DNA from: Candidatus Entotheonellaceae bacterium
Lineage (GTDB): Bacteria > Tectomicrobia > Entotheonellia > Entotheonellales > Entotheonellaceae
DNA: 64,000 nucleotides
Direction of reading: 5' to 3'
NCBI GenBank assembly: GCA_965238075.1
Contig: OZ250173.1
Location: 1,600,001 to 1,664,000, forward strand
A program made the position numbers and the translations under genes. Positions 248 to 42,601 of the stretch are shown piece after piece. How positions within the stretch are numbered: position 1 is the stretch's first letter; each line of letters begins with the position of its first letter. The notes under the pieces were generated by a model. That model saw only the letters and a list, made by a program, of their open reading frames with translations. It made no database searches and was not told the origin of the DNA.

Positions 248-1516
248 GTGGCACAAGAAGGCATGTCTGTGGAAGCGCAGGTTGACCTGCTGATGCGCGG
301 CACCCGCTTCGCCGACGAGGCCGATTACTGGGGCGCCGAGAGGCCCGAGGGCGGCGAGTTGCGGGGCCGCATGCATTCCGAGCTGCGCGACAAGCTGCGG
401 CTTGGGCGGCCGTTGCGCGTTTATCTGGGCGTCGATCCCACCAGCACCGAACTCCACGTCGGGCACTTCGTCCCCCTGCAAAAGCTGCGCAGGTTCCAGG
501 ACCAGGGCCACCAGGTGGTCTTTCTGATCGGCGATTACACCGCCACCATCGGCGACCCCAGCGAGCAGACGAGCGAGCGCAAGCGCCTGACGCACGAGCA
601 CGTGCTGGAGCTGGCCGGCAGCTATACCGAGCAGGCCTACCGCATCCTGGACCCCTCCAGGACCGAGGTGCGTTACAACGGCGATTGGCTGGGGAAGCTC
701 TCCTTTGCCGACATCATCGAGCTGGCCAGCATCTTTCCGATGAAGCAGATCGTCGCCCGCCGGGATTTCCAGCGTCGCATGGAGCAGGGCGAGTCGCTGC
801 GCTTCCACGAATCGCTGTACGCGCTGATGCAGGGCTACGACGCCTACATGCTGAAGTGCGACGTGCAGGTAGGCGGCTACGACCAGCATTTCAACATGCT
901 GGCCGGGCGCGCGATTCAGGAGCACTTTGGCGATAAGCCGCACGTCATGCTGACCAATCCGCTGCTCATCGGCACCGACGGGCGCAAGATGTCGAAGAGT
1001 TACGGCAACGTCATCAACGTGCACGACGCGCCGTTCGACATGTACGGCAAGACGATGCGCATGGCCGACGCGCACATTCCGGCATACCTGGAACTCGCCA
1101 GCTCGCTGGACGCCGATGACATCGACACCGAGGTGCAGCAACTGCAGGACGGCGCCAACCCGATGGAGGTAAAGAAGCGGCTGGCTTTCGACCTGGTGCG
1201 GCAGTATCACGGCGAGGCAGCGGCGGGCGAGGCAGCGGAAACGTTCCGGCGTGTCGTGCAGCGCCAGCAAGCGCCGGACGAGGTGCCGGAAGTGATCGTG
1301 CCGCCGCATCTGTTGGGGGCGACGTGGGTCGACCTGTGCGCCGGCCTCAAGTTGAGCCCGTCGAAAGCCGAAGCGCGCCGCCTGATGCGCCAAGGCGGCT
1401 TTTACATTGAACAGACGCCGGTGAAGGATACCGAGGCCCGCGCGGAGGTGCCGCCGGCGGGCATCCTGGTGCGGCTGGGCAAGCGGCGCTACTACCGCCT
1501 GCTGCCCGGTGCCTGA
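248..1516 (+). CDS. tyrS: Tyrosyl-tRNA synthetase
   Basis: YLGVDPT..LHVGH (HIGH), GGYDQHFN, KMSKS and a C-terminal S4-like domain (SKAEARRL..QGG..RLGKRRY). Confidence 0.96.
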   Translation: MAQEGMSVEAQVDLLMRGTRFADEADYWGAERPEGGELRGRMHSELRDKLRLGRPLRVYLGVDPTSTELHVGHFVPLQKLRRFQDQGHQVVFLIGDYTATIGDPSEQTSERKRLTHEHVLELAGSYTEQAYRILDPSRTEVRYNGDWLGKLSFADIIELASIFPMKQIVARRDFQRRMEQGESLRFHESLYALMQGYDAYMLKCDVQVGGYDQHFNMLAGRAIQEHFGDKPHVMLTNPLLIGTDGRKMSKSYGNVINVHDAPFDMYGKTMRMADAHIPAYLELASSLDADDIDTEVQQLQDGANPMEVKKRLAFDLVRQYHGEAAAGEAAETFRRVVQRQQAPDEVPEVIVPPHLLGATWVDLCAGLKLSPSKAEARRLMRQGGFYIEQTPVKDTEARAEVPPAGILVRLGKRRYYRLLPGA

Positions 1517-1615
1517 GCCCGGTACAGGCGAGCATTTCCCCTTGGTAAGCAGGGGGCCATTTTCCGGTTAGGCCGCTTCGCGCGGTTTGTGTGTGTTTTT
1601 GGAGGAGAAAAAGAC

Positions 1616-2416
1616 GTGGATATTATTGTCACCCTCAAGCAGGTGCCGGACCCGGAGGCGCCGAAGGAGACCTTTCGGATTGACGAGTCGGCGATGAAGA
1701 TCGTCAATCCGCCCAATATCGATCCGGTCATTAACGGGTATGACGAAAACGCCATCGAGGCGGCGCTGCAGCTCAAAGAGGCCGCCGGCGGCAAGGTGGT
1801 CGCGGTGTCGATGGGCGAGGCGAGCGCGAACCGCGCCCTCAAGCAGGCGATGGCGATGGGGGTGGACGAGGGTATTCTGCTGCAGGATGAATCGTTTGCG
1901 GGCGCCGACGCCGCCTCGACGGCTTACGTACTGGCGCGGGCTATCGAGAAGATCGGCTCGTACGGGCTGATCCTGTGCGGTCGCCAGGCGTCGGATTGGG
2001 ACCAGTCGCAGGTGCCTTCCGGCATTGCCGAGCTGCTCGGACTGCCGAGCGTGACCGCCGTGCAGAAGGTGGCGTTGCAAGACGATGCGGTGCGGGTCGA
2101 GCGCATCCTCGAGGACGGCTACGAGGTGCTGGATATTCGCGGGCCGTGCGTGGTGACGGTGAGCAATGAGGCCAACAAGCCGCGTTACCCGACGCTGAAG
2201 GGCATCATGACGGCGGGCAAGAAGCAGGTTCCGGTCTGGGATGCGGCGGCGTTGGGCGTCGATGCGGCACAGGTCGGCAACGCCGGGGCGCTGACCCGCG
2301 TCAGCAAGCTGTACGTGCCGAGTTTCGACGGCGACTGCGAATTCATCGCCGGCGAGACGCCGGAGGAGATGGGCGCGAATCTGGCCCTGCGCTTGCGGGA
2401 GTTGAAGATCATCTAA
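1616..2416 (+). CDS. etfB: Electron transfer flavoprotein beta subunit
   Basis: IIVTLKQVPD, YDENAIEAAL, LILCGRQASD, PRYPTLKGIM; GTG start at 1616 behind GGAGGA. Confidence 0.93.
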   Translation: MDIIVTLKQVPDPEAPKETFRIDESAMKIVNPPNIDPVINGYDENAIEAALQLKEAAGGKVVAVSMGEASANRALKQAMAMGVDEGILLQDESFAGADAASTAYVLARAIEKIGSYGLILCGRQASDWDQSQVPSGIAELLGLPSVTAVQKVALQDDAVRVERILEDGYEVLDIRGPCVVTVSNEANKPRYPTLKGIMTAGKKQVPVWDAAALGVDAAQVGNAGALTRVSKLYVPSFDGDCEFIAGETPEEMGANLALRLRELKII

Positions 2417-2459
2417 ACACCGGAACGCCTCATAGAATTGAACGATGGAGGATAGCAGC

Positions 2460-3455
2460 ATGACCCAGGGCGTAATGATTTTCGCGGAAACGAGCGGCGC
2501 CGCGCTGGCGCCGATTGCCAAGGAGATGTGCGGCGTCGGACGCCGCCTTGCCGATGCGCTCGGTGAGCCACTGGTCGCCGCGGTGGTCGGCTGCGGCGTC
2601 GGCGACATGGCCCAGGAAGCCATCGCGCACGGCGCCGACCGCGTTTACCTGGCGGACGCCGACGTGCTGCAGACCTACCAGACGGCGTCGTATTGCACGG
2701 TGGTGGGACAGATTGCCGAGCAGGCGGAGCCGGAAGTTTTGCTGGTGGGGATGAGCGACAACGGCCGCGACCTCGGCCCGCGGCTGGCGTTCCGGCTGCG
2801 CACCGGGCTGGCCTCGGATTGCGTCGACTTGGCCATCAACGCCGAGACACGCCTGCTGGAAGCGACCCGTCCGGTGTCGGGCGGCAATGCCATGGCGACC
2901 GTGGTGATCGAGAAGACGCGGCCGCAGATGGCCACGGTGCGCGCCAAGACGATGCCGGCCGCCGAACCGGACACTGGGCGGCAGGGCGAGGTCATCGCCG
3001 TTGACGTTTCGCTGGACGCCGCCTCGCTGCCGGTAACCGTCGTTGAGCGCGTCAAGGCCGAATCCGAAGGCGTGCGGCTGGAAGACGCCGACATCGTCAT
3101 CTCCGGCGGACGCGGCTTGAAGGGGCCGGACGATTTCTACGCCATCCTGGAACCCTGCGCCAAAGCGCTCGGCGGCACCATCGGCGCCTCGCGCGCGGCG
3201 GTGGACGAGGGCTGGGTGCCCACACAACTGCAGGTGGGGCTGACCGGCAAGATCGTCAGCCCGAAGCTGTACGTCGCCTGCGCCATCTCCGGCGCGGCGC
3301 AGCACATGGCGGGCTGCGGCTATTCGAAAACTATCGTGGCGGTGAACCGCGACCCCGACGCCCCGATCTACCAGCGCGCCAATATCGGCATCGTGGGCGA
3401 TTACAAGAAAGTCATCCCGGCCTTCCAGGCCAAATGCGCCGAGCTGCTTGGCTAG
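2460..3455 (+). CDS. etfA: Electron transfer flavoprotein alpha subunit
   Basis: [34 protein letters not shown]; follows etfB. Confidence 0.95.
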
Positions 3456-3565
3456 CGCCGGTCTTGCCGGCGCGCCCGAACCTTCCCGCCTCGCCGGGCG
3501 TGCCGGCGGATTGCAGTCCGTCCCGTCAACACACCCTTCCGAGAACACCGCAAAGGAGACCTATC

Positions 3566-4048
3566 ATGACCGTAGAGGAAATCGCCAAGCGATTGCTGGC
3601 TCAGAGCAGACGGGTGTCGGTGGCGGAAGCCGATACCTGTGGACTGGTCGGCTATCTGCTGAGCACGGTGCCGGGCAGCTCGAAGTACTTTCCCGGCGGC
3701 GTTATTGCCTACACCGGTGGCCTCAAGCAGAGCATCCTGGGCGTGCCCGACGACCTGTACGCCGCCAAGGGCAGCGTCAGTCCCGAGGTGGCGAGCGCCA
3801 TGGCCAGGGGCGTGCGCGATCTGACGGGCACCGACTACGGCCTGTCGGTGACGGGGGTGGCCGGTCCGGCTGGCGGCCAGCCCGGCGTGCCCATCGGCAC
3901 CTTTTATGTGGCGGTGGCCGGCCCCGACGGCCTTGACGTAGCGGAGCGCATTCAGGCGGACGCAGCCGACCGCGACGGCAATAAGCATCAGGCGGCGCAG
4001 GCCGTCCTGGATTTGCTCGGCCGCCATCTGCCGGCGGCCTCTGGCTAG
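3566..4048 (+). CDS. CinA C-terminal / PncC-like NMN deamidase family protein
   Basis: PGSSKYF, GSVSPEVASAMARG, SVTGVAGP, PIGTFYVAV; ATG behind AAGGAG. Confidence 0.85.
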   Translation: MTVEEIAKRLLAQSRRVSVAEADTCGLVGYLLSTVPGSSKYFPGGVIAYTGGLKQSILGVPDDLYAAKGSVSPEVASAMARGVRDLTGTDYGLSVTGVAGPAGGQPGVPIGTFYVAVAGPDGLDVAERIQADAADRDGNKHQAAQAVLDLLGRHLPAASG

Positions 4049-4130
4049 AGCATTTCCGTGGCCCTCTGCCTGGGCGGAGAAACCGCTACTCCCTCTCCCC
4101 TGGCGGGAGAAGGTTGGGGTGAGGGGGAAG
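4046..4130. repeat. MITE-like end (TAGAGCATTTCCG) plus CCCTCTCCC/GGGAGA palindromic repeat
   Basis: Same terminus as 8447-8459 and same core as 8570-8610; overlaps the TAG stop of the PncC-like gene. Confidence 0.75.
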
Positions 4131-4155
4131 TCGCGCCCGCCCTTGTCGGTTCCGG

Positions 4156-4497
4156 CTACCAGTTCACCAGATGCGGCTTTTGCTGCCGCCAGCCGGCGTC
4201 GGACGGGAAGACGGTGGTCAGCGGAATGGCCTGCGTGTCGCCGTCGAACCAGTCCTGCACGGTCTCCCGCCATTTGATGTAGTGGGGCGCGTTGCGGTGG
4301 GCAGTCATGTGGTCGTCCTGCGTTTCGTACACCTCATACAGATAGAACGTATTGGGGTTGGACGGGCTCTGGTGAATGTCGAACCGCAGGCAGCCGGGCT
4401 CATCGCGCACCGACCCCTGGGCGTCCCCCAGGCTGGCCTCCTTGAACTGCTCTGAAAATCCCGGCTTGATCTTAATGGTCACGAAGATGGCGTACAT
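4156..4497 (-). CDS. ABM-domain protein, LsrG-like
   Basis: SVRDEPGCLRFDI, FYLYEVY, AHRNAPHYIKWRETV. Confidence 0.85.
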   Translation of the reverse strand: MYAIFVTIKIKPGFSEQFKEASLGDAQGSVRDEPGCLRFDIHQSPSNPNTFYLYEVYETQDDHMTAHRNAPHYIKWRETVQDWFDGDTQAIPLTTVFPSDAGWRQQKPHLVNW

Positions 4498-4646
4498 GGC
4501 TGGTCCCTTCTTTCTCTGTGGCGCGGTTAACCGGCTGGTTGAAACCCGGTGTTGCGGTGGTGTGAAGCCGTTGAGCGGCTGGCCATTATAGGGAGGGCCC
4601 GGTGCCCGGACAAGCGACGGCGTGGACTTGCCCCCAAGAAGAGGGA

Positions 4647-5684
4647 CTACTCGACTCCCTCCGCCTCGAAGAGCTTGACAATCTCGTCGCGCGCGAAGCT
4701 TGGCAATTGCCGTGTGGCTTCCTGGCTACATAAGAACAAGCCTTCGTCGGGCGTTACGACCCTGCCGATGTCATAGCAGACGATGCCTGCGGCGCCGCAG
4801 GCTTGTACGGCCCTGGCGGCTTGCGCCGCCGGCACAGTAGCCAGCAGGGCGCCGGAGGCGATAACGCCCAAGGGATCGAGCCCGAAGGCGCTGCAGAGCG
4901 CCCGGCCTTCCGGCAGCAGCGGCAGTCGCTCGGCTTGCAGACGCAGCCCGACGCTGGAAGCGCTGGCTAACTCCCGCAGGCCGGTCGCCACGCCGCCTTC
5001 GGTCGGGTCGTGCATGGCGTGCACCTCAACCGCCTGTTGCAGCACCGCGGCGTCCCTGACCACGCTGATTCCCGGATCGAACAACAGCCCCTGCCAGCGG
5101 GCGATGTCGTGCGCCGCGAAGCCCTGAGCGGCCAATTGCGCCGCCCGTTCGCGGGCAATGATGGCGCTGCCCTCCAACGGATAGCCTTTGGTGAGCAGGA
5201 CGGCGTCGCCGACTTGCGCCCCGGCGCTGGTGACCAAGTCTTGGCGCGTCGTCTCCCCCAGCATGTGGCCGCAGACGAGCGGGCGGTCCAGTCCCAGCGT
5301 GATCTCCGTATGCCCGCCGACGAGCGTCACCTGCAGAGCCCGGCACGCCTCGCGTATCTGCGCAAAAATGTCCCGCACCAAGTCCGGGGTGGTGCCCTTT
5401 TCCGGCAGCAGCAGGGTGGCCAGGAACCAGCGCGGCGTGCCGCCCATGCTGGCGATGTCGTTGGCGTTGACGTTGACGGCGTAATAGCCGATGGCGTCCG
5501 TGGCGAAGGTAATCGGGTCGGACTTGGCGATCAGCAGCCGATCGCCAAAGTCGATCACCGCGGCGTCCTCGCCGGGGCGCGGGCCGATGAGCAGCCGCGG
5601 GTCGGCGGGCGTTTCCTGCTGCTGCAAGAGCTCTTCCAGCAGCGCTGCGGGAAGCTTGCCGGGTGGGAGAATTGGCTGCGCCAT
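4647..5684 (-). CDS. AIR synthase-related protein (PurM/HypE/ThiL/SelD superfamily)
   Basis: GEDAAV, KSDPIT, NANDIASMGG, VGGHTE, MHDPTEGG. Confidence 0.88.
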   Translation of the reverse strand: MAQPILPPGKLPAALLEELLQQQETPADPRLLIGPRPGEDAAVIDFGDRLLIAKSDPITFATDAIGYYAVNVNANDIASMGGTPRWFLATLLLPEKGTTPDLVRDIFAQIREACRALQVTLVGGHTEITLGLDRPLVCGHMLGETTRQDLVTSAGAQVGDAVLLTKGYPLEGSAIIARERAAQLAAQGFAAHDIARWQGLLFDPGISVVRDAAVLQQAVEVHAMHDPTEGGVATGLRELASASSVGLRLQAERLPLLPEGRALCSAFGLDPLGVIASGALLATVPAAQAARAVQACGAAGIVCYDIGRVVTPDEGLFLCSQEATRQLPSFARDEIVKLFEAEGVE

Positions 5685-29425: not shown

Positions 29426-32400
29426 ATGAATCTTCTCGCCGAACTCCGCGCCGATGCCTATCACCGAAACTACTTCCAGCCCTGTTCGTCGGCTCGGCGC
29501 TCGGGGGCGTGCTTGTTTTTGAAGCGATCTCGATCTCTGCTCTGATCTTCTCCGGTCCGATGGCGCCGCTCGCCATTCGTGGCGTCGGGCTGCCGCTGTT
29601 CGCCGCCTTCGTTTTGTGTTTGACCATCACCCTGACCAGCGCCTACCGAGGAGCCATCTCCACCCCGCAGAGCCCGCCGTTTGCGGTGATTACCGGTATC
29701 GCGGCGGTCGCCGCAGCCAGCATGGCCGGCGTCGCCAGCGAGACAATGTTCGCCACCATTGCCGTCATCCTGATCCTGGCAACGGGGGTTGCGGGCGCAT
29801 GCGTTCTGCTGATCGGTCAGATCCGTATCGCCAACGTTTTCCGTTTCATCCCTTACCCCGTGGTGGGCGGCTATCTTGCCGGCGCCGGTTGGACCCTGGT
29901 TGTGGCGTCCTTCTCGATCATGAGCGGGGTCGCACCGACCTGGGAGACTCTGCCCCGGTTCATTGAGCCTACGATGCTTTGGAAATGATTACCCGGTGTC
30001 GTCTTCGCCGTCTTGCTGCGCCTTGCCCTGGTGCGATGGAAGAACCACTTCCTGGTCATGCCGGTGTCGATAGTCGTCGCGGCCGCGCTCTATCACGCGG
30101 GCTTGATGCTGCTCGGTATCTCCGGCGAGGACGCCCGGGCGTCGGGACTTCTGTTCGAGAGCATCGGAGAACACGGTTTGTGGCCCGCCTTCCACACCGG
30201 AGACCTGGTCCATGTGGATTGGCGCGTCGTTCTTCATCAAATGCCGAGTATTCTTGCCGTCATCCCGGCCCTACTGATTTCGCTGACCATGGGCCTCAAG
30301 GGCCTCCATGTAGGGAGCGGTGTCGATCTCGATCTGAACCGGGAATTCCGAGTGGCCGGGCTGGCCAATATGATTGCCGCTCTTGGCGGTGGCGGTCCGC
30401 CTGGCAACCATTCGGTCTCCCTTTCCCTGCCCGTCCGCATGTTCGGAGCCTGCAGCCGGCTGACGGGAATGGCCGCCGCTCTTCCGGTGGGCGCGGTCCT
30501 GTTCGGGGGCGAAGCGGTGCTGGAATGGTTCCCCGTTTCGCTGATGGGCGGCCTGTTCTTCGTGATCGGGTTCCAACTGTTGCACAGCTGGCTGATCGGA
30601 GGCCGCCTGAAACGGCTCTCCGCGGACTATGGGGTCGTTGTCCTGGTTTTCTTGACCATTGCCATTTTCGGATTCCTCCACGGCGTGGCGGTCGGTCTAC
30701 TCGTCGCGGCGTTCATCCTCGCCATCAACCTCGGTCAGGTAGATGTGATCGAGGCCGTGTATACGGCGCGCGCGCCGCAGCAACAGGATGCGCCCGGTGT
30801 CTCATCAAGCCATCCTGTTGAACCATGCCGACCGAACTCGGGTTTACCAGTTGCAGGGCTACGTATTCTTCGGAAGTGCGCAAGCGCTTGTCGACCGCCT
30901 CAAGGAGCCGCTATTGGAGGAGTCGCCGCCGTTGTGCATGTTGTTGGACTTCACGAGTGTCACCGGTTTCGACATCTCCGCCTTGGACGCGCTCGTCGGT
31001 TTCGTCAGCGATGCGGGTTCTATCGGCACGCGGGTCGTTATCGTTGCCCCGGCCGAGCTCCCGCACACCGAGCTGCGCCGCGAATTCTCCGGCGACGAGC
31101 GGGGAAATGTGATCTGGGAACAGGATCTCGATCATGGGCTGGAACGGTGCGAGGAGATCGTGCTGGCTAAGAATTCGAATGTGACCGACGTCGGCTCGGA
31201 AGGCCATAGGGCGCGAATAATCGACGATACGCTGCGCTATCTGGACAAGCTGGTTTTCTTCGAGGAATTGATAGAGCGGCTCCGGCCCTGGCTCGAAGTG
31301 CGCGAGTATGCCGCCGGAGAAACGGTTGTTGCCGCGGGCGAGAAACACGACGGCATGTTTCTGATCGTGGAAGGCCAGGTCTCCGCATTCGCCGAAAACG
31401 GGTCTAAAGTGCGTTCACTTTGATACCAAGAATTTCTCGAACTCCAGGTCGAGTTCGAATCTTGGCCACAACCGCGAGACCAACCGTTGCGGATCGGCAT
31501 TGATACGATCGATGAAGGCTTTGCAGGCATCAAAGAGATGGCGCATGGAGGCATGACAGAAATTGCGCGTCACCTCTTCGCGCATCCACTTCCAGAGACC
31601 TTCAATCGGATTCAGGTCTGGGCTATAGCTTGGCAGAGCGACCAACGTGAAGCCCAATTCCGAAGCCGCCGCTTGCACACGCTTGGCCTTGTGCCACGGG
31701 GCGCCGTCCCAGATGAGTACGACCTCACCAGGCTCATCACCCATCCAAGCGGCAACGTGGTGTAAGAATTCGATCGTATGGGCTTGGTTACAGGAGCCCT
31801 CGTTCCAGATGAAACACTGGCCGCAGGAGAAATCGTAGGCGCCATACCAGTTGATGCGTTCAGCCAAAGAGGCACAGCCGCTCAGACGCCAAGCGGGTTT
31901 GCCCTCGGGCGCCCAGGTGTAGCCCAGGTCCATATCGCGGTGCAGATGGGCTTCATCGATATAGAGCAAGCGGATATCCCGGCGACAAAGCCGCGCCAAC
32001 AATTCCTGGAATTGTTGGACAAAGGCGGCACGACGTTGCGGGTCGGCCTTCTTGAGCACTTTTTGGCATTTCTTCCAACTCAGTCTTTGAGCCCGCAGGA
32101 CTCGGTGCAAGGTCGTGCGGCTGCATGCGTAGCCGATGACCTGTTCAAGCCAACGTCGCAACTTTTTCAAGGTCCAGGCATGGCCTGGCAGGCCATGGTC
32201 GAGCGGGTCGGTCTCGACGACCGTGCGGACGAGTTGATCGAGTTGCTCTTGGCCAAAAGGGGGTGGCGGCCTCCGGTGTGACGATAGATGACGCCCGCGA
32301 GGCCGGCCAAATTGTAACGATGCACCCAACTCAGGACGGTCTCCTTGGTATGTCCGATGTGGGCTGCCCAGGTAGTCGCATTGGTTTGCTGAGAGGCGAT

Positions 32401-34006: not shown

Positions 34007-36682
34007 TTAGGCGTCGGGGGCGCGCGGCAGGCTGACGAGGTTGGCCAGCAGGCGGTAGGCGCCGGGAACGCCGGCGGGAAGTTGGCGGAACAGGGCATAG
34101 GCGCAATAGACGTAGTGGCCGCGACCCAGCCGGGCACGCAGCAACCCGCCGCGCCGGGGCGGCTCGCCGGGGTCGGCGCTTTCCAGCAGGGGCGTCATGT
34201 GCGGCGGCCATTCAGCGAGGAAATAGAGGCCGCGCTCCTGTTGCCAGCCGCTGAAGTCTTCAGTGCCCAGTCGATTCGGAAAGCTCAGGAGCGGGTCGTC
34301 CGCTGCCAGCAGGCGGACCGGCGCGGCGGCTTGGCTCACCCTCGGGGCCGGGCGCGGCAGGCTGACGCCGTCGAAGGGCACGAAGCGGCCCGGGCCATCC
34401 TCGCGCGGCTTGTGATATTGCACCACCACCGTGCCGCCGCCGCCCGCGTAGTCCCACAGCCGGCGGCGATGCGCAGCCAGAGAAGGGCTCGTTTCGAGGG
34501 CCCGCACGCCGACGACAATCGTATCGAATTCCGCCAGACTTCCATTCTGCAAATCATCTTCATCGATCGTTTGGACGCTGACGCCAAGCGCGCTCAGCGC
34601 CTCCGCAACGCCGTCGCCGGTACCCGGCAGATAGCCAACCCGCAAACCGGGCGCCACCTCGACGGGAACGATGCTGACGCACACCTCGGCCGGCGCCAGC
34701 ACGTACCCCGGCTCAAGGTGCGGATAACGCACGTCCTGCCACGATCTGAGCCGTGAGGCGGCCTCGGCGCCCGCCGCCGGAGTGATCTGCTCCTGCCATT
34801 CCACCCCAAACACCCGCTTGCCGGATGCGCCGGAACCGATGGGCAGCGTTTGCTGAACGGTGCGCTGCTCGCCGGCTTGCAGGCTGAGCGCGGCGGATGC
34901 GTGCGCTTCCGGCTGGCCACCGTCGCAGGTGCGCAGAACCAATCGGCCTCGACCGGCGGCATGGGCGTGCAGTTGCACGTCTACCGTCGGCACTGCCGCG
35001 CTGGATGCCGGTATGACAATGAGGCTCGGCGAAACGCTGATGGTGACGGTCGGGCGTACCCGCAGTGGGTGTCGCAGCTCACCGCGGGCGGGGTCCAGTT
35101 CGCGCCACGCAATGGGCGCCGACAGCGGAATGTCCAAGGCCTGCCCTGAACCCCGGATCAGGTCCGGGGCAAGCTTTGATTCAGCGTCACCGGCGTTCAG
35201 CATCGCCCGAACCCGTAGCGGCGGCAACGCGGCGGGCGCCAGGCACGGCAGCTCCTCATCAAAGCGATACAGGTCGGCCTCGGGCGGCAGGCGCAGCCAC
35301 GGCGGCAAGGTGGCCGCCACCGCGGTTGCCTCATCCTGCGGCGCCGTGAGGCGGAAACGCGCCGTAACGCTCCCACCGCCGCACACCTTCAACGGCAGCG
35401 CCGGGCCTTCGAGACACTCGACCTGCCAGCCCGGTTGCGCGTGCGCTTGCAGGGACGACAGGGTGACGTCGCTGTTGCCGCGCAGGAACAGTTCCGCTTC
35501 GACGTCTACGATGCCGCCGGCAATCACGTCGGGCTTCGCCGCCAGCACTTCGAGGGCAAGGCCGTGGGTCTGCAGCCAAGCCGCTTCAATGCGCCGCTGG
35601 CATTCCCGCAAGCGGTCGTGTAGGACCGTGGGCTCGCCGTCGAGCATCCGAATGGCATTCGTGAGCGCGCCAAGCCCGGCGGCGAGCGTGGGAGCCGTCC
35701 GTTCAGGCCGTTGCGGGTGGTAGCTCTCCCAAGCCGCGTCCAGGTGCTGCACGGCGGATTCAATGGCCGCGACGACGTCCGGGCGGTTCAAGGCTTGCCG
35801 GCCAGAGGCCGCCCGCGCCCACGCCTCCAGCCGCACGGGCAGACCCTCCAGCGGGTTGGCGTCCTGGCCGCCGGGTGGCGGCGGGCCCGCCGCCACCCGG
35901 TAGACAACGTGCTGGGCGCCCTTCAGCAGTAGTGCGCCCATGTTCTGCGAGCGGTGCAGGCTGCGGCCCTGCATGGCGATCTCAAAACACGAGCGCCCGA
36001 GGAGCGGATCGAAGCGCCCAACGTGGATGTGCAGATCGTCTGCCGCCTGGTGCGCGGCGTCCCGCACCCGCACCAGGAGGCGCTTCGGCCACCAGGGAGA
36101 CAGCCCGGCCCGGATCTGTTCCGGGAACGCCGCCGCATCGCCGGCCCGTTCGAACGCCTCGCGGGTTGCGGCGCCGCACGCCCGATGATGGCCATGCCCA
36201 TCGATCGGCGTGCCGGTCCATATCGAGATCACCACGTCGGGCTGCAGCGCCCGGATGGCCTGCACGATGCTGCCCACCACACGCTCGCGCGGCCAGTGCG
36301 CAAAGGCATCCTCAGCGCGTTTGGCGTAGCCGAAATCGATGCACGGCGAGAACAGTTGCTCGGCGCCGTCGTAGCGCCGGGAGGCCAGCAATTCGCCGGC
36401 GCGCAACACCCCGAAGGCAGCGCCGGATTCGGGGCCCAGGCAGTTCTGTCCGCCCTCGCCGCGGGTGAGCGACAGGTACGCGGTGCGGACGCCGTGACGC
36501 AGGGTCAACTCGGCGAGCAGGGCGCTGTCCTCGTCGTCCGGATGCGCCCCGACCATCAGGGCGCGCGCCGCCACCGGCAGGCCGCGCAGTGACAGAGGAA
36601 GGGAAACGGCGGTATGGGTCAATGCTGTGTGTTCGGTCACGGTGTTGCCTATGCGTGGGGTGTGAGTTACGAGCGCGGCCAT
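34007..36682 (-). CDS. Large multidomain PIG-L/LmbE deacetylase (Ig-like domains plus a C-terminal class I GATase-like domain)
   Basis: GAHPDDED, LTRGEGGQN, DFGYAK, HGHH, HRSQNMG, GWQQERGLYF, FRQLPAGVPGAYRL; start may be the GTG at 36640. Confidence 0.87.
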   Translation of the reverse strand: MAALVTHTPRIGNTVTEHTALTHTAVSLPLSLRGLPVAARALMVGAHPDDEDSALLAELTLRHGVRTAYLSLTRGEGGQNCLGPESGAAFGVLRAGELLASRRYDGAEQLFSPCIDFGYAKRAEDAFAHWPRERVVGSIVQAIRALQPDVVISIWTGTPIDGHGHHRACGAATREAFERAGDAAAFPEQIRAGLSPWWPKRLLVRVRDAAHQAADDLHIHVGRFDPLLGRSCFEIAMQGRSLHRSQNMGALLLKGAQHVVYRVAAGPPPPGGQDANPLEGLPVRLEAWARAASGRQALNRPDVVAAIESAVQHLDAAWESYHPQRPERTAPTLAAGLGALTNAIRMLDGEPTVLHDRLRECQRRIEAAWLQTHGLALEVLAAKPDVIAGGIVDVEAELFLRGNSDVTLSSLQAHAQPGWQVECLEGPALPLKVCGGGSVTARFRLTAPQDEATAVAATLPPWLRLPPEADLYRFDEELPCLAPAALPPLRVRAMLNAGDAESKLAPDLIRGSGQALDIPLSAPIAWRELDPARGELRHPLRVRPTVTISVSPSLIVIPASSAAVPTVDVQLHAHAAGRGRLVLRTCDGGQPEAHASAALSLQAGEQRTVQQTLPIGSGASGKRVFGVEWQEQITPAAGAEAASRLRSWQDVRYPHLEPGYVLAPAEVCVSIVPVEVAPGLRVGYLPGTGDGVAEALSALGVSVQTIDEDDLQNGSLAEFDTIVVGVRALETSPSLAAHRRRLWDYAGGGGTVVVQYHKPREDGPGRFVPFDGVSLPRPAPRVSQAAAPVRLLAADDPLLSFPNRLGTEDFSGWQQERGLYFLAEWPPHMTPLLESADPGEPPRRGGLLRARLGRGHYVYCAYALFRQLPAGVPGAYRLLANLVSLPRAPDA

Positions 36683-36710
36683 TATAACGCCTCAGCGCCG
36701 TGTGGACAGG

Positions 36711-36750
36711 GGTTTGGGAGGTCGGGAGGTTTGGGAGGTCGGGAGGTTTG
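36711..36750 (+). repeat. 17-bp G-rich tandem repeat
   Basis: GGTTTGGGAGGTCGGGA x2 plus GGTTTG. Confidence 0.85.
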
Positions 36751-36871
36751 TGTTATACAAGGAAAGACGCGGGGGCAGTCGGTTTGCTTCGCCAATCCGG
36801 CCTGCGTGTATGCCTGCACAAGTCTGCGATTGACAATGATTCCAACCCACGGGACAAACGACCGGATTCTC

Positions 36872-38026
36872 ATGCGACAACTGAAGGATTTAATGGCCTG
36901 CGGCGAGGGCGTGGCGTTCCTGGCTGAGCGGGATATGTTTGTTTGCGAGGCGGAATTCGCGGCGCGGCTGCAGGCGCCCGCGAACGGGGCGCTGGCGGCC
37001 TATTTTGAGGCTCCGCAAGGCAAGCCAGTATACGCGCTGCAGCAACTCTACACCGATTGTACGCCCTCGATGCTGGACCGCATGGCTCTGCTGCGCGATC
37101 TCGAACAGCGTCCGGCCTGCTTGCCCTTCTTTCTGTGGATCGACACCGACCTGGCCGGCAGCGACCCGCTCATGCTGCGAATGCTGTGGACGGTGTTCGG
37201 CAAGCAGGTTTCGCTGCGCCTTTGCCCCGCCGCCAATGACGTCCGCGAGTTGCGCTTCATCCCCGTTGATTCCGCCGCCGTGCGGGACGCCCTCGCCAAG
37301 CTTGAGGTCTACGTCAGCCAGTCCATTACCGGGCGCAAAAAGGTGGCGCGCGCCCGCATCCGGGAGCGACTGGACACGCTGCGGGATGTCCTCCTGCCGG
37401 ACCCGCCCGCCGCGCACAGTGACCTGAATCACCGATTGAGCTGTTTCCTGCTGAACCACCAGGCTGCGTTGAATCCGCATTCTGTCCGGGTATCCGAACT
37501 CCTCGCCCGCGGATTGCTCACGGCGTCAGCCAACGAATTCATCAACCGCCTCGACGACGCCATCCGCGTTTTCAACGCCGCTGCCGAAACCTTGAGAACC
37601 CAAGGCATCGAGCCGCACGTCAAGCCATTGGCGCCCGACTACCTGCCGCTGCACGTATCGTGCCGCGACTGCCGCCGCCGTTTGCGCCTGCGCCGCGAAA
37701 CGCAGGGCGTCGATCAAGTCGCCGCTGCTCGGTGCCGATGCGGCGAGGCGTACCGTTTTCATCTGGGCGGCAAGCGTTTATCCATCGATGCCATTACCGA
37801 CGCCGCCGACTGGAGTCCCGACGTGTCGCTGACGCTGTTTCTGAACGATTTGGTAAGCGGCTACGTCGCCGGCGCCAGTTCCGGCGCGTACTATGGCCTG
37901 GTGATGGCGGAGGTGCTGCAACAGGTGTTCGGCAAGCGCCGCGTACCCATCCTGCTACCGCGGCTCGACGGCGCCGGAGCCAGCGGCGGCTTGCTGTACC
38001 GTTATCTCATGGAAGGCACGGGATAA
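36872..38026 (+). CDS. Hypothetical 384-aa protein, remote BshC-like ligase with a Cys4 zinc ribbon
   Basis: Long ORF ending 4 nt before bshB1; YALQQ, FLWIDTD, CRDC..CRCG, WSPDV, YVAG...AYY, VPILLPR. Confidence 0.6.
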   Translation: MRQLKDLMACGEGVAFLAERDMFVCEAEFAARLQAPANGALAAYFEAPQGKPVYALQQLYTDCTPSMLDRMALLRDLEQRPACLPFFLWIDTDLAGSDPLMLRMLWTVFGKQVSLRLCPAANDVRELRFIPVDSAAVRDALAKLEVYVSQSITGRKKVARARIRERLDTLRDVLLPDPPAAHSDLNHRLSCFLLNHQAALNPHSVRVSELLARGLLTASANEFINRLDDAIRVFNAAAETLRTQGIEPHVKPLAPDYLPLHVSCRDCRRRLRLRRETQGVDQVAAARCRCGEAYRFHLGGKRLSIDAITDAADWSPDVSLTLFLNDLVSGYVAGASSGAYYGLVMAEVLQQVFGKRRVPILLPRLDGAGASGGLLYRYLMEGTG

Positions 38027-38030
38027 GGTT

Positions 38031-38756
38031 ATGGAAGAGGCGTTGGACATCTTGGCATTTGCCCCGCACCCGGACGACGCCGAACTGGGCTGCGGGGGCA
38101 GCCTGATTGCGGCGGCGGACAAGGGCTGGCGGGTTGCGGTGGCAGACCTGACGGCGGGGGAGTCATCCAGCCGCGGCACCCTCGAGCAGCGAGAGCGCGA
38201 AACCCAATGCGCCACGGCCTTGCTTGGTCTGACGGCACGTTTCTCCTTGGGCCTGCCGGACGGCGGCATCGGCACCCACCCGGACCACCGCCTGCCGATC
38301 ATCGAGGTGGTCCGCCAAACGCGCCCGCGTATCGTCCTGGCGCCCTACTGGGAGGACCGTCATCCTGATCACTCGCGGGCCAGCAATCTGGTGCGCGAAG
38401 CCTGCTTCTTCGCCGGTGTCGGCAAAATCGGCGACGGCGAGCCGTATCGCCCGCCACTGCTCTACTACTACCTGCTGCACACGCCTTTTTCGCCGTCGTT
38501 TATTATGGATGTGTCGTCCGTGTGGGAGCGCCGCATGGCCGCGGTGCGGGCATATGAGAGCCAGTTCATGGCGGGCGAGAAGACCGCTACGACGGCCTTG
38601 AGCCGGCCCGGCTTCCTGCGCGCCCTGGAAGCGCGGGCGGTGTGGTTCGGTTGGATGATCGGCGCAAGCCACGGCGAGCCCTTTCTGAGCGCCACGCCGA
38701 TGGCCGTCGGCAGCATGCCGGGTCTGCCGCCGCAAGCCGGTTTTCCCCCGGCTTAG
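38031..38756 (+). CDS. bshB1: Bacillithiol biosynthesis deacetylase BshB1-like
   Basis: LDILAFAPHPDDAELGCGG, DLTAGE..SRG, DRHPDH, AYESQF. Confidence 0.85.
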   Translation: MEEALDILAFAPHPDDAELGCGGSLIAAADKGWRVAVADLTAGESSSRGTLEQRERETQCATALLGLTARFSLGLPDGGIGTHPDHRLPIIEVVRQTRPRIVLAPYWEDRHPDHSRASNLVREACFFAGVGKIGDGEPYRPPLLYYYLLHTPFSPSFIMDVSSVWERRMAAVRAYESQFMAGEKTATTALSRPGFLRALEARAVWFGWMIGASHGEPFLSATPMAVGSMPGLPPQAGFPPA

Positions 38757-39120
38757 AGCGGTCTCTGGCGGGTAAACTTCAACTTATCGAAGCGTTTATT
38801 TCGTAGGACATCGAACCAGCGTTTTCGTTCCGCGAGGGTTGGGTTTTTTGCGGTTTTGGCACGCGTTTTCGGTCAAGGATTTGTTGTAGGGGATGTAACC
38901 CCCCTTGCCCCCCTGACAAGGGGGGTTGGGGGGTTGCACCAACGCAGTAGCCCCGCCACTCGTGGGCACCTCTTTGTCCAAAGCCTCACGCACCGTCCCA
39001 CATGCTGGCTCTCCGGCGCGGCCGTCCTGCCCATGAGCCTGAACCTATCGCATCGGATGCTCAGGGTTGGTTCGCCCATTGTGGATGCGTGCTGCCTACG
39101 ACTTGCCACCGGCAGCCCGT

Positions 39121-39777
39121 CTAGCGTTTATAGTTCTTCGCATACGCCGGAAGCGCGATACCGGCTCGGAGCTGCGGATCGGCAACCGGCAGTTGTGATA
39201 CCAGGCGTAGCGGCACCTCACCCGCCCAGCAGTCGAGTTGGTAATCGTCCTCATCATCCACTGGCGGCCCGGAGCGAATCTTTGCCGACACCTCTTCCAA
39301 GGGCACCCGTATCACGCTCGTGGCCTTCAGTTCCTGAGCGGACGGTTCGCGGACGTCCTCCCATCGTCCAACCATGACGTGATCGACGATGGCTTTGAGG
39401 GCGGCCATCTTTTCGTCAGAGTCGGTGACCTCCCTCGCCTGGCCGAGAACCACGACGGAGCGGTAATTCATCGAATGATGAAACCCCGAACGCGCCAGCA
39501 CCAGACCGTCCAGCAAGGTGACCGTGACGCAAACCGGCATCCTCCCCCCAATCGCGCCCAGCATCCGGCTCGCAGCAGAACCGTGAAGATACAGATGATC
39601 CTCGATACGAGCGTAGATCGTCGGGATGACATACGGCTGACCGTCAACACTGAAGCCGACGTGGCAGAACAAGCCTTCCGCCAAAATGGCCTCAACAACC
39701 GCGACGTCATACGAAGCCCGCTTCGGCATGCGTCGTATGCGGATGCGCTCGGTTTTCTCGTACTGCGGCATGGACAT
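39121..39777 (-). CDS. Pyridoxamine 5'-phosphate oxidase-like flavin-binding protein
   Basis: PYVIPT, LHGSAASR, DGLVLARSGFHHSMNYRSVV, SAKIRSGPP. Confidence 0.9.
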   Translation of the reverse strand: MSMPQYEKTERIRIRRMPKRASYDVAVVEAILAEGLFCHVGFSVDGQPYVIPTIYARIEDHLYLHGSAASRMLGAIGGRMPVCVTVTLLDGLVLARSGFHHSMNYRSVVVLGQAREVTDSDEKMAALKAIVDHVMVGRWEDVREPSAQELKATSVIRVPLEEVSAKIRSGPPVDDEDDYQLDCWAGEVPLRLVSQLPVADPQLRAGIALPAYAKNYKR

Positions 39778-39821: not shown

Positions 39822-40946
39822 TTACGGCTGGTAAAGCGCCTCGTAGGCACGCACGCCCTGTTCGACCCCGAAGCCGCTGGCGTGTCGGATGGCCGCCTGC
39901 CGCATGGCTTCGTGCTGCGCCGGATCTGTCAACAGGCCCACGGCCAGATCAATTGCCTCGGCGTTGTCGCCAAGCGGAAAAAACAGCCCGGTACGGCCCC
40001 GCATCACCACCTCCGGCAGCCCGCCCACGCGCGTCGCGAGCACCGGCACGCCGCACGCCATGGCTTCCAGGGCCACCATGCAGAAACTTTCGTACAGGCT
40101 GGTCACGAGCAGCAGGTCGGCGCCGCGCAGGAAGGGCGCCACGTCGCGCTGCAGGCCCAGATAGCGCACGTCGTCCGCGTAGCAGCTGCGCTCCAGCAGC
40201 GCCCGCACGGCGGGTAGATCCTCGCCGCTGCCCACGAGCCACAACTCGGCGTCCAAACGCTCGCGAATGCCCAGGAAAATGCGCGCCACGCTGGGGGTGT
40301 CCTTGATCGGTCTGAAATTGGAGACATGCACGATACGGAGCGGTCGCGCCGGGTGGGAGGGCGGGGATGTTAGTAGGCATGGTTTGAAGCGCGCCAGGTC
40401 GATGAAATTACTGACCACGCGCGGGCGAGAAGACAGGTTGAACGCCGCGGCAGCCAATTTCGCGTGGCTGAAGGAAACGGTGCTCAGCACGTCGTTGCAG
40501 CGCAAAGCGGCGGCCAGTTTCGGCGCCACCGCGGGGTCCTTGCCAGAATGTGTCACGTCGGTGCCATGCAGCGTGCCGATCAGCCGGGGCGCCGCGTCGC
40601 CCAGGCAGCGGTGCACGTTCTGCGCCACAAAGGCGAACGGCACGGCATAGTGGAAATGCAGCACGTCCAGGCGCTCGGCGGCAATGACCCGCAAAATGTC
40701 CTCGGTGTAGCGCTGCAGATCGCCCTCCGACCAGTCGGTATGCAGGGTTGCCGGGTGCTGGGTATCGGCGGCGTCCGGCAACAGGGTGTGCAGCACCACC
40801 CCATTCGACCGGTCCCAGCCGACCAGCGGCGTCGTGCGGGTGAACAGGTGTACCCGATGCCCACGCCTGGCCAGAGCAATGGCCAATTCGATGCCAATGC
40901 GGGCGCTGCCGCCGAAACTGGCGTGACACATCATGCCAATTCGCAT
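39822..40946 (-). CDS. bshA: GT4 glycosyltransferase, GlcNAc-malate synthase BshA-like
   Basis: IGMMCHASFGGS, LHFHYAVP, TLHGTDVT, HVSNFRPIK, ESF..ALEAMACGVP. Confidence 0.82.
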   Translation of the reverse strand: MRIGMMCHASFGGSARIGIELAIALARRGHRVHLFTRTTPLVGWDRSNGVVLHTLLPDAADTQHPATLHTDWSEGDLQRYTEDILRVIAAERLDVLHFHYAVPFAFVAQNVHRCLGDAAPRLIGTLHGTDVTHSGKDPAVAPKLAAALRCNDVLSTVSFSHAKLAAAAFNLSSRPRVVSNFIDLARFKPCLLTSPPSHPARPLRIVHVSNFRPIKDTPSVARIFLGIRERLDAELWLVGSGEDLPAVRALLERSCYADDVRYLGLQRDVAPFLRGADLLLVTSLYESFCMVALEAMACGVPVLATRVGGLPEVVMRGRTGLFFPLGDNAEAIDLAVGLLTDPAQHEAMRQAAIRHASGFGVEQGVRAYEALYQP

Positions 40947-41005: not shown

Positions 41006-42472
41006 TTACAAACCATCGAATTCCGGCCGGTACGCCACGACGCCGCGAATGCCGTGCAGTGCGCCCCGCTTCAACGCCTGAACCATGAAGGCGTCCGGCG
41101 GCCCGGCGTGTTCCCAGTTGATGCCCAAGGGCTTGGCCGGCTTGAAACCGAAGCGCCCATAAAACTGCGGGGCGCCGAGCACGAAGACGATGCCGTACGG
41201 CGTTGTGCCGCAGGCCGCCAGCCCCGCCCGTACGAGCCGCGAGCCGATGCCGCGGCGCTGCCATCCCGGCAACACCGCCATCGGCGCCAGCCCTAGGGCG
41301 CTGAGGGTGCTTGTATCGTCCCGAATGACCACCGGGCTGAAGGCGATATGTCCGACGACCGTGCCGCCCTCGACGGCCACCAATCCAATACGCAACGCGC
41401 CGGCGGCCCGCAGGGCATCGACTAGGTTGGCCTCATCCGGCCGCCCAAACGCCTCGGCGTGCACTCGGCGGATGGCGGCGATATCGCCGCCGGCCTCAGG
41501 CCGAATGCCGCTCATGGGAGCCGTCCCTTCCGCTTGCTGCCTAACACGCAACAGCGCCAGCAGCCCCTCGTCGCGGCGCGCCGCGAGTGCCTGTCCTTGT
41601 TCCGGCGTGTACGTATAGAAACCGCTGCCGCTCTTGACCCCGAGCCGCCCTTCGGCCACCCGTCGATGCAGAACCGACGGCACCTCGGCGGCGCTGTTCA
41701 GGTCCTGAAACAGATAGCCGGCGATGGCGTCGAACACGTCCAGGCCGCCGAGATCGGCGATCTCCAGCGGGCCGAAGAGCGCCCAGCGCAGGCCGATGCC
41801 GTGCTTGATCGCCGCGTCCACGTCGGCAGCCGACGCCACACCGGCTTCGATGAGGTGCAGCGCTTCGCGCATGAGCGCAAATTGCAGCCGGTTGGCGATG
41901 AATCCCGGCACCTCGCGCCGCACGAGCACCGGGCGTTTGCCCAGGCGCCGCGCCAGGGCCGTCAGCACTTCGCAGGTGGCAGCGGACGTTTCTTCTCCTT
42001 TGATGATTTCGACGATGGGAATGATATGGGGCGGATTGGCGTAGTGTAACCCCACAAAACGCCCCGGCTGCGACACCGCTTCGGCGATGCGCGAGATGGA
42101 CAGGCCCGAGGTGTTGGTGGTGAAAAGCGTCGCGCCGCCGCATAACCTGTCGAGCGCCTTGAACAACGCCTGCTTGGCCGGCAAGTCTTCGGCAATGGAT
42201 TCCGACACCAACTGCACGCCGGCCAAGTCGGCCAACACCTCGGTCGGATACAGCCGTGCCAGCGCCACCTCCGCTTGACCTGCCGTCAGCACCCCGTGAC
42301 GGATCAGCAGGCTCTGGTTGTCCCGGATGCGCGACAAGCCGCGCTGCAGCCCCGCCGCCGAGCGGTTGTACCACCGCACCGCGTATCCGGCCTGCGCGAA
42401 TACCTGGGCGATCCCCGCGCCCATGGTACCGGCCCCCACTACGCCCACGTCCGTGATGTCTCCGAGTTCCAT
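41006..42472 (-). CDS. 3-hydroxyacyl-CoA dehydrogenase fused to a YhbS-like GNAT acetyltransferase
   Basis: GAGTMG, NTSGL, HYANPP, GFIANR, then GHIAFSPV, LAPMAVLP.WQRRGIG, FYGRFGF. Confidence 0.85.
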   Translation of the reverse strand: MELGDITDVGVVGAGTMGAGIAQVFAQAGYAVRWYNRSAAGLQRGLSRIRDNQSLLIRHGVLTAGQAEVALARLYPTEVLADLAGVQLVSESIAEDLPAKQALFKALDRLCGGATLFTTNTSGLSISRIAEAVSQPGRFVGLHYANPPHIIPIVEIIKGEETSAATCEVLTALARRLGKRPVLVRREVPGFIANRLQFALMREALHLIEAGVASAADVDAAIKHGIGLRWALFGPLEIADLGGLDVFDAIAGYLFQDLNSAAEVPSVLHRRVAEGRLGVKSGSGFYTYTPEQGQALAARRDEGLLALLRVRQQAEGTAPMSGIRPEAGGDIAAIRRVHAEAFGRPDEANLVDALRAAGALRIGLVAVEGGTVVGHIAFSPVVIRDDTSTLSALGLAPMAVLPGWQRRGIGSRLVRAGLAACGTTPYGIVFVLGAPQFYGRFGFKPAKPLGINWEHAGPPDAFMVQALKRGALHGIRGVVAYRPEFDGL

Positions 42473-42601
42473 CAATCCTCTCCCCTTGCGGCGCCGTGAC
42501 GCCCGTCGCCAGACAACGACCTTGCCCCTGTGCTGTGAATCCCATCATAATACGTCACCTTACGAATCCCGGCGCCCGGCGCCGAAACAAGGAGGCACGA
42601 C

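Follow-up and report, generated by a model that had tools for sequence, protein, structure and literature searches.

The mycothiol cysteine ligase MshC derives from cysteinyl-tRNA synthetase (CysRS) and has kept the motifs of the aminoacyl-tRNA synthetases (aaRSs). In the bacillithiol pathway, cysteine is ligated to glucosamine-malate (GlcN-malate) by BshC, a role that excerpts of a published account assign from the requirement of this protein for bacillithiol in vivo and from the accumulation of GlcN-malate in the mutant (PMC5790435). According to the same excerpts, no in vitro reconstitution of the BshC reaction had been achieved, and it was not known in which form cysteine enters it, some activated form of this amino acid being proposed as the donor (PMC5790435). 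Here we describe a gene located in a stretch of 64,000 nucleotides, hereafter the window, from a Candidatus Entotheonellaceae bacterium (assembly GCA_965238075.1, contig OZ250173.1, positions 1,600,001 to 1,664,000). This gene (36872..38026, plus strand) encodes a compact member of the BshC superfamily with 384 amino acids (aa) (P0001), and with moderate confidence we assign to it the job of BshC in a bacillithiol-type pathway, namely the ligation of cysteine to GlcN-malate.

The strongest evidence, which was not used in the initial annotation of this DNA, is that the gene is flanked by bshB1 and bshA in a genome that has no canonical BshC. The start codon of bshB1 (38031..38756, plus strand; GlcNAc-malate deacetylase, GlcNAc being N-acetylglucosamine) lies 4 nucleotides (nt) past the stop codon of the compact gene, and its product matches PF02585 and scores 270.9 bits with TIGR04001 (cut-off 182.5); judging from this spacing, both genes are probably co-transcribed. 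On the opposite strand, 1.8 kb downstream of the compact gene, is bshA (39822..40946, minus strand), encoding an N-acetylglucosaminyl-malate synthase of glycosyltransferase family GT4 and of a divergent lineage (TIGR03999, 277.7 bits; cut-off 273.7). In the genome of the window, assembled as one contig of 3.35 Mb with 93% completeness, exactly one copy of the compact family was found and no match to the BshC family PF10079, which was also missing from all 30 other carrier genomes searched, while the controls Bacillus subtilis, Thermus, and Deinococcus were positive.

The complementary distribution of the compact family and canonical BshC was also evident within the phylum of the window, where 12 of 17 genomes have a BshA over the cut-off. 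Nine of these 12, from two genera, carry the compact family without BshC, and the other three, from two other genera, carry a canonical BshC of 547-561 aa without the compact family; the five genomes lacking a BshA over the cut-off have neither. Since kin are not independent, this pattern stands for a few evolutionary events and not for 17. Moreover, among 301 sampled Chloroflexota genomes, in which the scoring for BshA covered only six first-look candidates per genome, no BshC was detected, and the single genome with the compact family was also the single genome with a BshA over the cut-off. Regarding other thiols, the genome of the window has no GshB, and the MshC model was matched only at the level of CysRS, below its cut-off; therefore, among the pathways searched, the cluster is the sole recognisable dedicated route to a low-molecular-weight thiol in this genome.

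The association with BshA and BshB1 extends far beyond the window. When one genome per species was taken, 36 loci were recovered from Tectimicrobiota/Entotheonella, Chloroflexota, Actinomycetota, and Alphaproteobacteria, representing at least five phyla, with single metagenome-assembled genomes (MAGs) labelled Zixibacteria, Bacteroidota, and Syntrophobacteria. In tblastn searches with the window proteins, BshB1 was found in the flanks of the homologue in 33 of the 36 loci, BshA also in 33, and both in 32; the four loci without both genes were L005 (where BshA is elsewhere in the genome), L009 and L018 (which are at contig ends), and L023. Counted from coordinates, BshB1 follows the homologue on the same strand within 150 nt in 25/36 loci. 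In the cultured species Nocardioides immobilis the order is a CBS protein, a large PIG-L protein, BshA, the homologue, and BshB1, the last four genes being spaced by 2 to 5 nt, and both BshA (282.4 bits) and BshB1 (254.7 bits) are over their cut-offs.

Regarding the fold, the AlphaFold2 model of the compact protein (built from alignment A1) reached a mean pLDDT of 93.5 and a pTM of 0.91, and Foldseek returned just three matches in the PDB at E <= 0.001. First among them was B. subtilis BshC (4wbd; E 9.1e-12, probability 1.00, TMq 0.59), followed by two chains of a class I lysyl-tRNA synthetase (LysRS) structure, 1irx (E 5.4e-8 with TMq 0.45, and E 1.9e-7). A structure prediction of this kind had been proposed as a check with the initial annotation, and it yielded the predicted Rossmann-like fold with BshC and class I LysRS as best matches. 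Furthermore, hhalign aligned A1 with an alignment of 26 canonical BshC sequences (A2) over 275 columns (residues 49-367 of the compact protein against 86-382 of BshC), with a probability of 96.1% and an E of 3.2e-9, a resemblance far beyond chance. The family profile itself reached two PF10079-positive proteins, P0251 (E 4.6e-9) and P0258 (E 4.5e-7); a domain scan of ten distant profile matches gave two with PF10079, one with PIG-L, and seven without a family. Thus, the BshC-likeness suspected at first from motifs is borne out by fold, profile alignment, and profile search. When the family profile was compared with PDB sequences, no BshC or aaRS match was obtained; the best match was a UvrB fragment (E 0.057), which we attribute to chance.

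Positions 36872-38026 translate into a single open frame of 384 codons plus stop. A longer open reading frame (ORF) starts at 36614 and runs into the start of the divergent gene at 34007-36682; the 384-aa form is covered at 99-100% by homologues that are themselves 380-395 aa long. Because of this agreement in length, and because the longer ORF overlaps the divergent gene, 36872 is the better start. All the motifs quoted in the initial annotation are present in the translation in the order claimed, that is, YALQQ (residues 54-58), PFFLWIDTD (85-93), LPLHVSCRDC (258-267), CRCG (288-291), WSPDVSL (314-320), YVAGASSGAYY (331-341), and VPILLPR (358-364). The parallels with BshC drawn there by eye were returned by hhalign with the same pairings: ALQQ with GQQ, PFFLWIDTD with PVFW..EDHD, WSPDV with FSPNV, YVAGASSGAYY with YVGGPGEIAYF, and VPILLPR with VPMP.I.PR.

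In the model, the first half of the Rossmann-like core comprises residues 49-116 (37016..37219, this and the following segments on the plus strand), with strands at 51-58 and 83-90; by hhalign columns, the QQ motif (residues 57-58, nt 37040-37045) stands in place of the BshC GQQ, and PFFLWIDTD (nt 37124-37150) in place of PVFW..EDHD. Between the Rossmann halves is a helical insertion (residues 134-243, 37271..37600; helices 134-151, 157-174, 182-198, and 207-243) that aligns to the helical region of BshC. This is followed by a four-stranded ribbon (residues 257-299, 37640..37768; strands 257-263, 269-278, 281-287, and 293-299) with C264, C267, C288, C290, and R270, a putative zinc site, and by the second half of the core (37811..37963), assigned from hhalign columns, with WSPDVSL, SGYVAGASSGAYYG (residues 329-342), and VPILLPR. 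The segment SGYVAGASSGAYYG occupies the position of YVGGPGE.AY in BshC and of KMSKS in aaRSs. The protein ends 20 residues past VPILLPR, where the PF10079 part of BshC stops; PF10079 and PF24850 are carried together by nearly all the canonical BshC proteins listed, and PF24850 is absent here, so the missing C-terminal coiled coil noted earlier is a real feature of this protein.

Conservation was counted in 169 family members of 340-420 aa. In the first half of the core, Q57 was found in 159, Q58 in 167, D91 in 168, and D93 in 160; in the second half, S315 and D317 in 164 each, G330 in 168, G334 in 167, S336 in 164, and P359 in 165. Overall, the invariant or near-invariant positions were Q57, Q58, D62, W89, D91, D93, E126, R128, S208, N235, P259, R270, S315, D317, S329, G330, G334, S336, S337, Y341, and P359. 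These were compared with the (near-)invariant residues of BshC (Q94/Q95, G101, K108, W132, D137/D139, R296, S330, G352, E355, and Y358), of which QQ, W, D.D, the ribbon Arg, S, G, and Y are retained. The loss of the other BshC-invariant residues, and the fact that in vitro activity is not known even for BshC, would be in line with a non-catalytic scaffold or regulator sharing only the BshC fold; we regard this as very improbable, since some 20 polar residues are near-invariant in different phyla and gather where aaRSs and BshC have their active-site motifs, and since, without the family, carriers would be left with BshA and BshB1 and lack an enzyme for the third step.

In the proposed pathway, BshA would couple GlcNAc to malate, BshB1 would take off the acetyl group, and the compact protein would acylate the freed amine of GlcN-malate with L-cysteine, giving bacillithiol or a very close analogue. 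Catalysis would take place in a Rossmann core of the BshC type, similar to that of class I aaRSs, with QQ standing for HIGH and G-x-S-S-x-x-Y for KMSKS, in an enzyme devoid of the coiled-coil dimerisation domain of BshC; the ribbon, present in class I LysRS, would have been kept in this protein and lost from canonical BshC, with an invariant Arg common to the compact protein and BshC. The homology, the fold, the gene neighbourhood, and the complementary distribution are direct results of this analysis. GlcN-malate is the presumed acceptor because the flanking genes are assigned to BshA and BshB1, and cysteine the presumed donor because the protein is considered equivalent to BshC; that ATP or some other activated form supplies the energy is likewise inferred, as is the metal.

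Several observations weigh against this assignment. Since the BshC reaction has never been reconstituted, to work like BshC is a statement that rests on genetics and not on known chemistry. The 470-aa ORF containing the protein matches no Pfam family, even at E <= 1, and the PF10079 cut-off is not reached; likewise, no NCBIfam model, the BshC model included, is matched at E <= 1. Against 4wbd, the model has a structural identity of 12%, a root mean square deviation of 10 Å, and a TMt of 0.44. The BshC loop QQPGL..GPLY...K, with G101 and the invariant K108, is deleted, E355 of BshC is aligned to Ser337, and about 40 BshC N-terminal residues are missing in addition to the coiled coil. The BshA of the window barely exceeds its cut-off; the BshA proteins of relatives that carry canonical BshC reach about 490 bits and share only 30-35% identity with it. 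In these relatives, bshC and bshA overlap as an operon with no BshB1 nearby, and for this reason an in situ replacement of bshC alone was rejected; the divergent BshA and the different gene arrangement indicate separate cluster lineages and not a one-gene swap, and a separate cluster lineage could make an analogue. In addition, YtxJ/BrxC, BrxA/B, and YpdA/Bdr are absent or below cut-off in the genome of the window, an absence without diagnostic value, given that YpdA and YtxJ are likewise missing from the three relatives that have canonical BshC. Finally, a genuine MshC was present in two of four actinobacterial carrier genomes tested, so the product of the compact pathway is not the sole thiol in those two genomes.

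The same points feed the main alternative, in which the N-acyl/aminoacyl ligase chemistry is the same and the divergent cluster makes an undescribed glucosamine conjugate, with another amino acid or another aglycone; we consider it a tentative possibility, on the unlikely side. The marginal and distant BshA, the loss of K108 and E355, the co-occurrence with MshC, and the lack of Brx/Bdr genes all speak for it, as do a haem dioxygenase-like fusion found beside the cluster in 15/37 loci and a short sister family located beside a DegT sugar aminotransferase and not a deacetylase (both described below), which would mean that the superfamily serves other amino sugars. Against it, the BshA and BshB1 neighbours pass NCBIfam "equivalog" cut-offs both in the window and in N. 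immobilis, every BshA-positive genome of the phylum has either the compact family or canonical BshC and none has both, the fusion is absent from the window neighbourhood and its genome, and most of the near-invariant BshC positions are kept (QQ, W/D.D, the ribbon Arg, S-P-(D/N), G...Y, and P..PR). A more far-reaching version, which we hold to be rather unlikely, would see in the family a living intermediate between LysRS and BshC, a minimal metal-ribbon ligase belonging to a separately evolved module of four genes (divergent BshA, BshB1, the ligase, and a large LmbE-type amidase) that makes an undescribed glucosamine-based molecule other than bacillithiol, either a new thiol or a conjugate without a thiol; the haem enzyme would be a further component of this module in many Chloroflexota and Actinomycetota.

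The initial annotation had likened LPLHVSCRDC...CRCG to the Cys4 ribbon of class I LysRS, and this likeness probably holds, with 1irx as the second-best fold, in a refined form. C264 is conserved in 160 of the 169 members, C288 in 154, C290 in 149, and R270 in all 169, and position 267 is occupied by Cys in 87 members and by Asp in 68; thus, three of the four cysteines are near-invariant and the pattern is Cys3(Cys/Asp), which, from this conservation, probably binds zinc. R270 aligns with the near-invariant Arg of the GxR element of BshC. The class I LysRS of the same genome has CxxC...CxC at its insertion, in hhalign register with C264/C267...C288/C290, and four aligned alphaproteobacterial class I LysRS sequences lack these cysteines. 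The ribbon of 1irx presumably holds a zinc ion at this place. The ribbon segment alone gave no match in the PDB, and hhalign of the family against class I LysRS gave a probability of 13.4% (E 0.0021), which is not significant alone.

These similarities bear on a further reading, namely an aaRS-derived enzyme acting on or with tRNA, either a truncated class I LysRS paralogue that charges a tRNA or carrier, or a ligase that uses an aminoacyl-tRNA. The rank of LysRS in the fold search, the ribbon pattern common with the LysRS of the same genome, and the invariant Arg within a basic ribbon agree with it, and the donor of BshC itself is described in excerpts as unknown, with an activated cysteine proposed (PMC5790435). 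We nevertheless judge it improbable: HIGH, KMSKS, and the anticodon-binding domain are all lacking in a protein that stops at residue 384, PF01921 is not matched and the profile comparison with LysRS is not significant, a complete class I LysRS already exists in the genome, and the conserved neighbours are sugar enzymes and not translation genes.

Regarding the extent of the family, 111 relatives were obtained at E <= 0.001 in a word-indexed search with 7999 candidates scored, and a profile of 54 members (alignment A1) recovered 167 proteins at E <= 0.001, 97 of them at E <= 1e-30, from 1.84 billion cluster representatives, which points to a small and sharply delimited family. Where source names are given, the relatives are called "hypothetical protein". 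Searches of the literature turned up no account of a short or alternative BshC, the supplements of survey papers, which possibly list such taxa, lying outside their coverage. No curated model, source annotation, or paper was found for the family, and its status as undescribed, suggested as a possibility from the start, agrees with the lack of any Pfam or NCBIfam match. In a quick maximum-likelihood tree of 37 family members and five sister-family proteins, the family was separated from the sister group with support 100, and the window protein fell in a six-member clade with five Tectimicrobiota MAGs, four of them labelled Entotheonella (support 100). Two sequences from sponge-type Chloroflexota/Dehalococcoidia MAGs (L006 and L008) were nested among Tectimicrobiota, and L020 (labelled Syntrophobacteria) was identical to L021 (Anaerolineales), which suggests either transfer between co-habiting bacteria or binning errors.

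No fused forms were found among proteins of 673-2000 aa, which is weak evidence. Four apparent fusions were read as read-through products or miscalled genes and were not used as Rosetta-stone evidence: in P0105 the compact protein runs on into 43 aa of BshB1 and then a low-complexity tail rich in Arg and Pro, three genes are combined in the chimera P0204, and P0213 and P0222, on short contigs, join the C-terminus of BshA to the N-terminus of the compact protein. When the window was compared with a strain of approximately 96% identity, 28 of the 37 differences listed for the gene were at codon position 3, a bias that fits purifying selection on its frame.

Upstream, the divergent intergenic region (36683..36871) contains a 17-bp tandem repeat in 2.3 copies, with units at 36711-36727 and 36728-36744 and a partial copy to 36750, and the same strain has one 17-nt unit fewer. 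A simple scan found no sigma-70-like promoter, and terminator-like sites were at chance level. The compact gene and bshB1 are covered (36600-38912), at approximately 96% identity, by contigs from four metatranscriptome libraries of a single study; these were rejected as proof of transcription, since such contigs can contain DNA. Downstream of bshB1, many unrelated contigs from RNA libraries converge and end at a C/G-rich palindromic element (38895-38947), where the summed depth is 630-1680, versus 74-240 on the genes; it looks like a multi-copy REP-like repeat or a hairpin.

Divergently transcribed from the compact gene is the gene for an 891-aa protein (34007..36682, minus strand) with an N-terminal PIG-L/LmbE domain (PF02585, residues 41-175), a weak Mca-like match (TIGR03446, E 1.3e-7), and an uncharacterised C-terminus of about 700 aa. 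For the latter no Pfam or PDB match was obtained; in a language-model atlas it groups with large LmbE/NPCBM_assoc proteins of Acidobacteriota and Bacteroidota. The large PIG-L protein had a tblastn match in 28/36 loci, with alignments of at least 850 aa in 12, and in N. immobilis it has an additional cNMP-binding-like region at the C-terminus; it may act as a thiol-conjugate amidase. About 1.7 kb past the 3' end of this gene (34007) is a DDE_3 (IS630-like) transposase with HTH_33/HTH_32 (31415-32329, minus strand). Between bshB1 and bshA, a Pyridox_ox_2/Nim-like flavoprotein gene (39121-39777, minus strand; PF12900, 1.1e-46) is kept at that place only in the five closest loci (L001-L005), and directly downstream of bshA a gene at 41006-42475 (minus strand) encodes the N- and C-terminal domains of a 3-hydroxyacyl-CoA dehydrogenase fused to a C-terminal GNAT acetyltransferase.

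The fusion adjoining the cluster in 15/37 loci (L019, at 1159-5142, and L010, L011, L014, L015, L017, L018, L021, L022, L023, L026, L027, L034, L035, and L036) has 1100-1330 aa and combines FHA, indoleamine 2,3-dioxygenase (IDO)-like (PF01231, 1.3e-34), FAD/NAD-binding reductase, and cytochrome b5 parts, and looks like a self-sufficient haem dioxygenase. The search that did not detect it in the neighbourhood or genome of the window had no positive control genome.

The short sister family (P0233, P0234, P0238, P0243, P0246, P0253, and P0254; loci L051-L087; alignment A4) comes from metagenome contigs and has 416-495 aa, no ribbon cysteines, and no Pfam match, with QQ, the ribbon Arg, WSPD, and G..S..Y retained. 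BshA/BshB1 homologues are nearby in only 3/37 of its loci. In the one locus examined, L062, the neighbours encode a DegT/EryC1 sugar aminotransferase, a PhyH dioxygenase, a GNAT protein, and a PAP2 protein, and from this setting the sister family probably acylates a different amino sugar.

If the proposed assignment is right, the compact family fills a gap in Entotheonella-type Tectimicrobiota, several Chloroflexota, some Actinomycetota, and some Alphaproteobacteria, which have BshA and BshB1 without a recognisable BshC. As stated in excerpts of two surveys of bacillithiol distribution, genomes had to match canonical BshC by BLAST at E 1e-20 (PMC6282198, PMC12719100), and consequently such surveys would score carrier genomes as pathway-negative. 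With 384 aa, no coiled coil, a probable metal site, and a small set of invariant residues, the compact form is a new and simpler object for biochemistry and structure, and such a stripped-down enzyme could reveal the activated donor of the BshC reaction. Moreover, N. immobilis is in culture, which makes the prediction directly testable.

Compared with known systems, the compact protein is closest to BshC (YllA; PF10079 + PF24850; 4wbd), with which it has in common a Rossmann-like core, a helical insertion between motifs that follow the same order (QQ, a hydrophobic strand ending in W..D.D, a beta-ribbon with a conserved Arg, S-P-(N/D), G..x..Y, and P..PR), the clustering with bshA and bshB, and a phyletic pattern in which its family stands in for BshC. 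It differs from BshC in size, with 384 aa against approximately 540 aa with a coiled coil, and in its Cys3(Cys/Asp) ribbon, where BshC has a shorter hairpin free of cysteines. The sister family and the long PF10079-positive proteins P0251 and P0258 are remote relatives found by the family profile; these two long proteins have the Cys-rich ribbon, as does P0257, but reach 551-574 aa with C-terminal extensions. Class I LysRS (PF01921; 1irx) has a ribbon inserted at the same place, with CxxC...CxC(G) in the LysRS of the same genome, whereas its HxGH-type and KxSKS motifs, seen in five class I LysRS sequences, are absent from the compact protein; it is also longer (514-600 aa) owing to anticodon-binding and C-terminal domains, and the fold match spans its catalytic core only. 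To MshC (TIGR03447; 3c8z and 8hfn) the fold match was marginal (Foldseek E 0.13, ranks 31-32), and the NCBIfam model of MshC was not matched. The logic is, however, analogous, since in MshC an aaRS-derived Rossmann enzyme adds cysteine to a de-N-acetylated glucosamine conjugate, and the shared ribbon would tie BshC to class I LysRS in parallel to the relation of CysRS with MshC in mycothiol synthesis.

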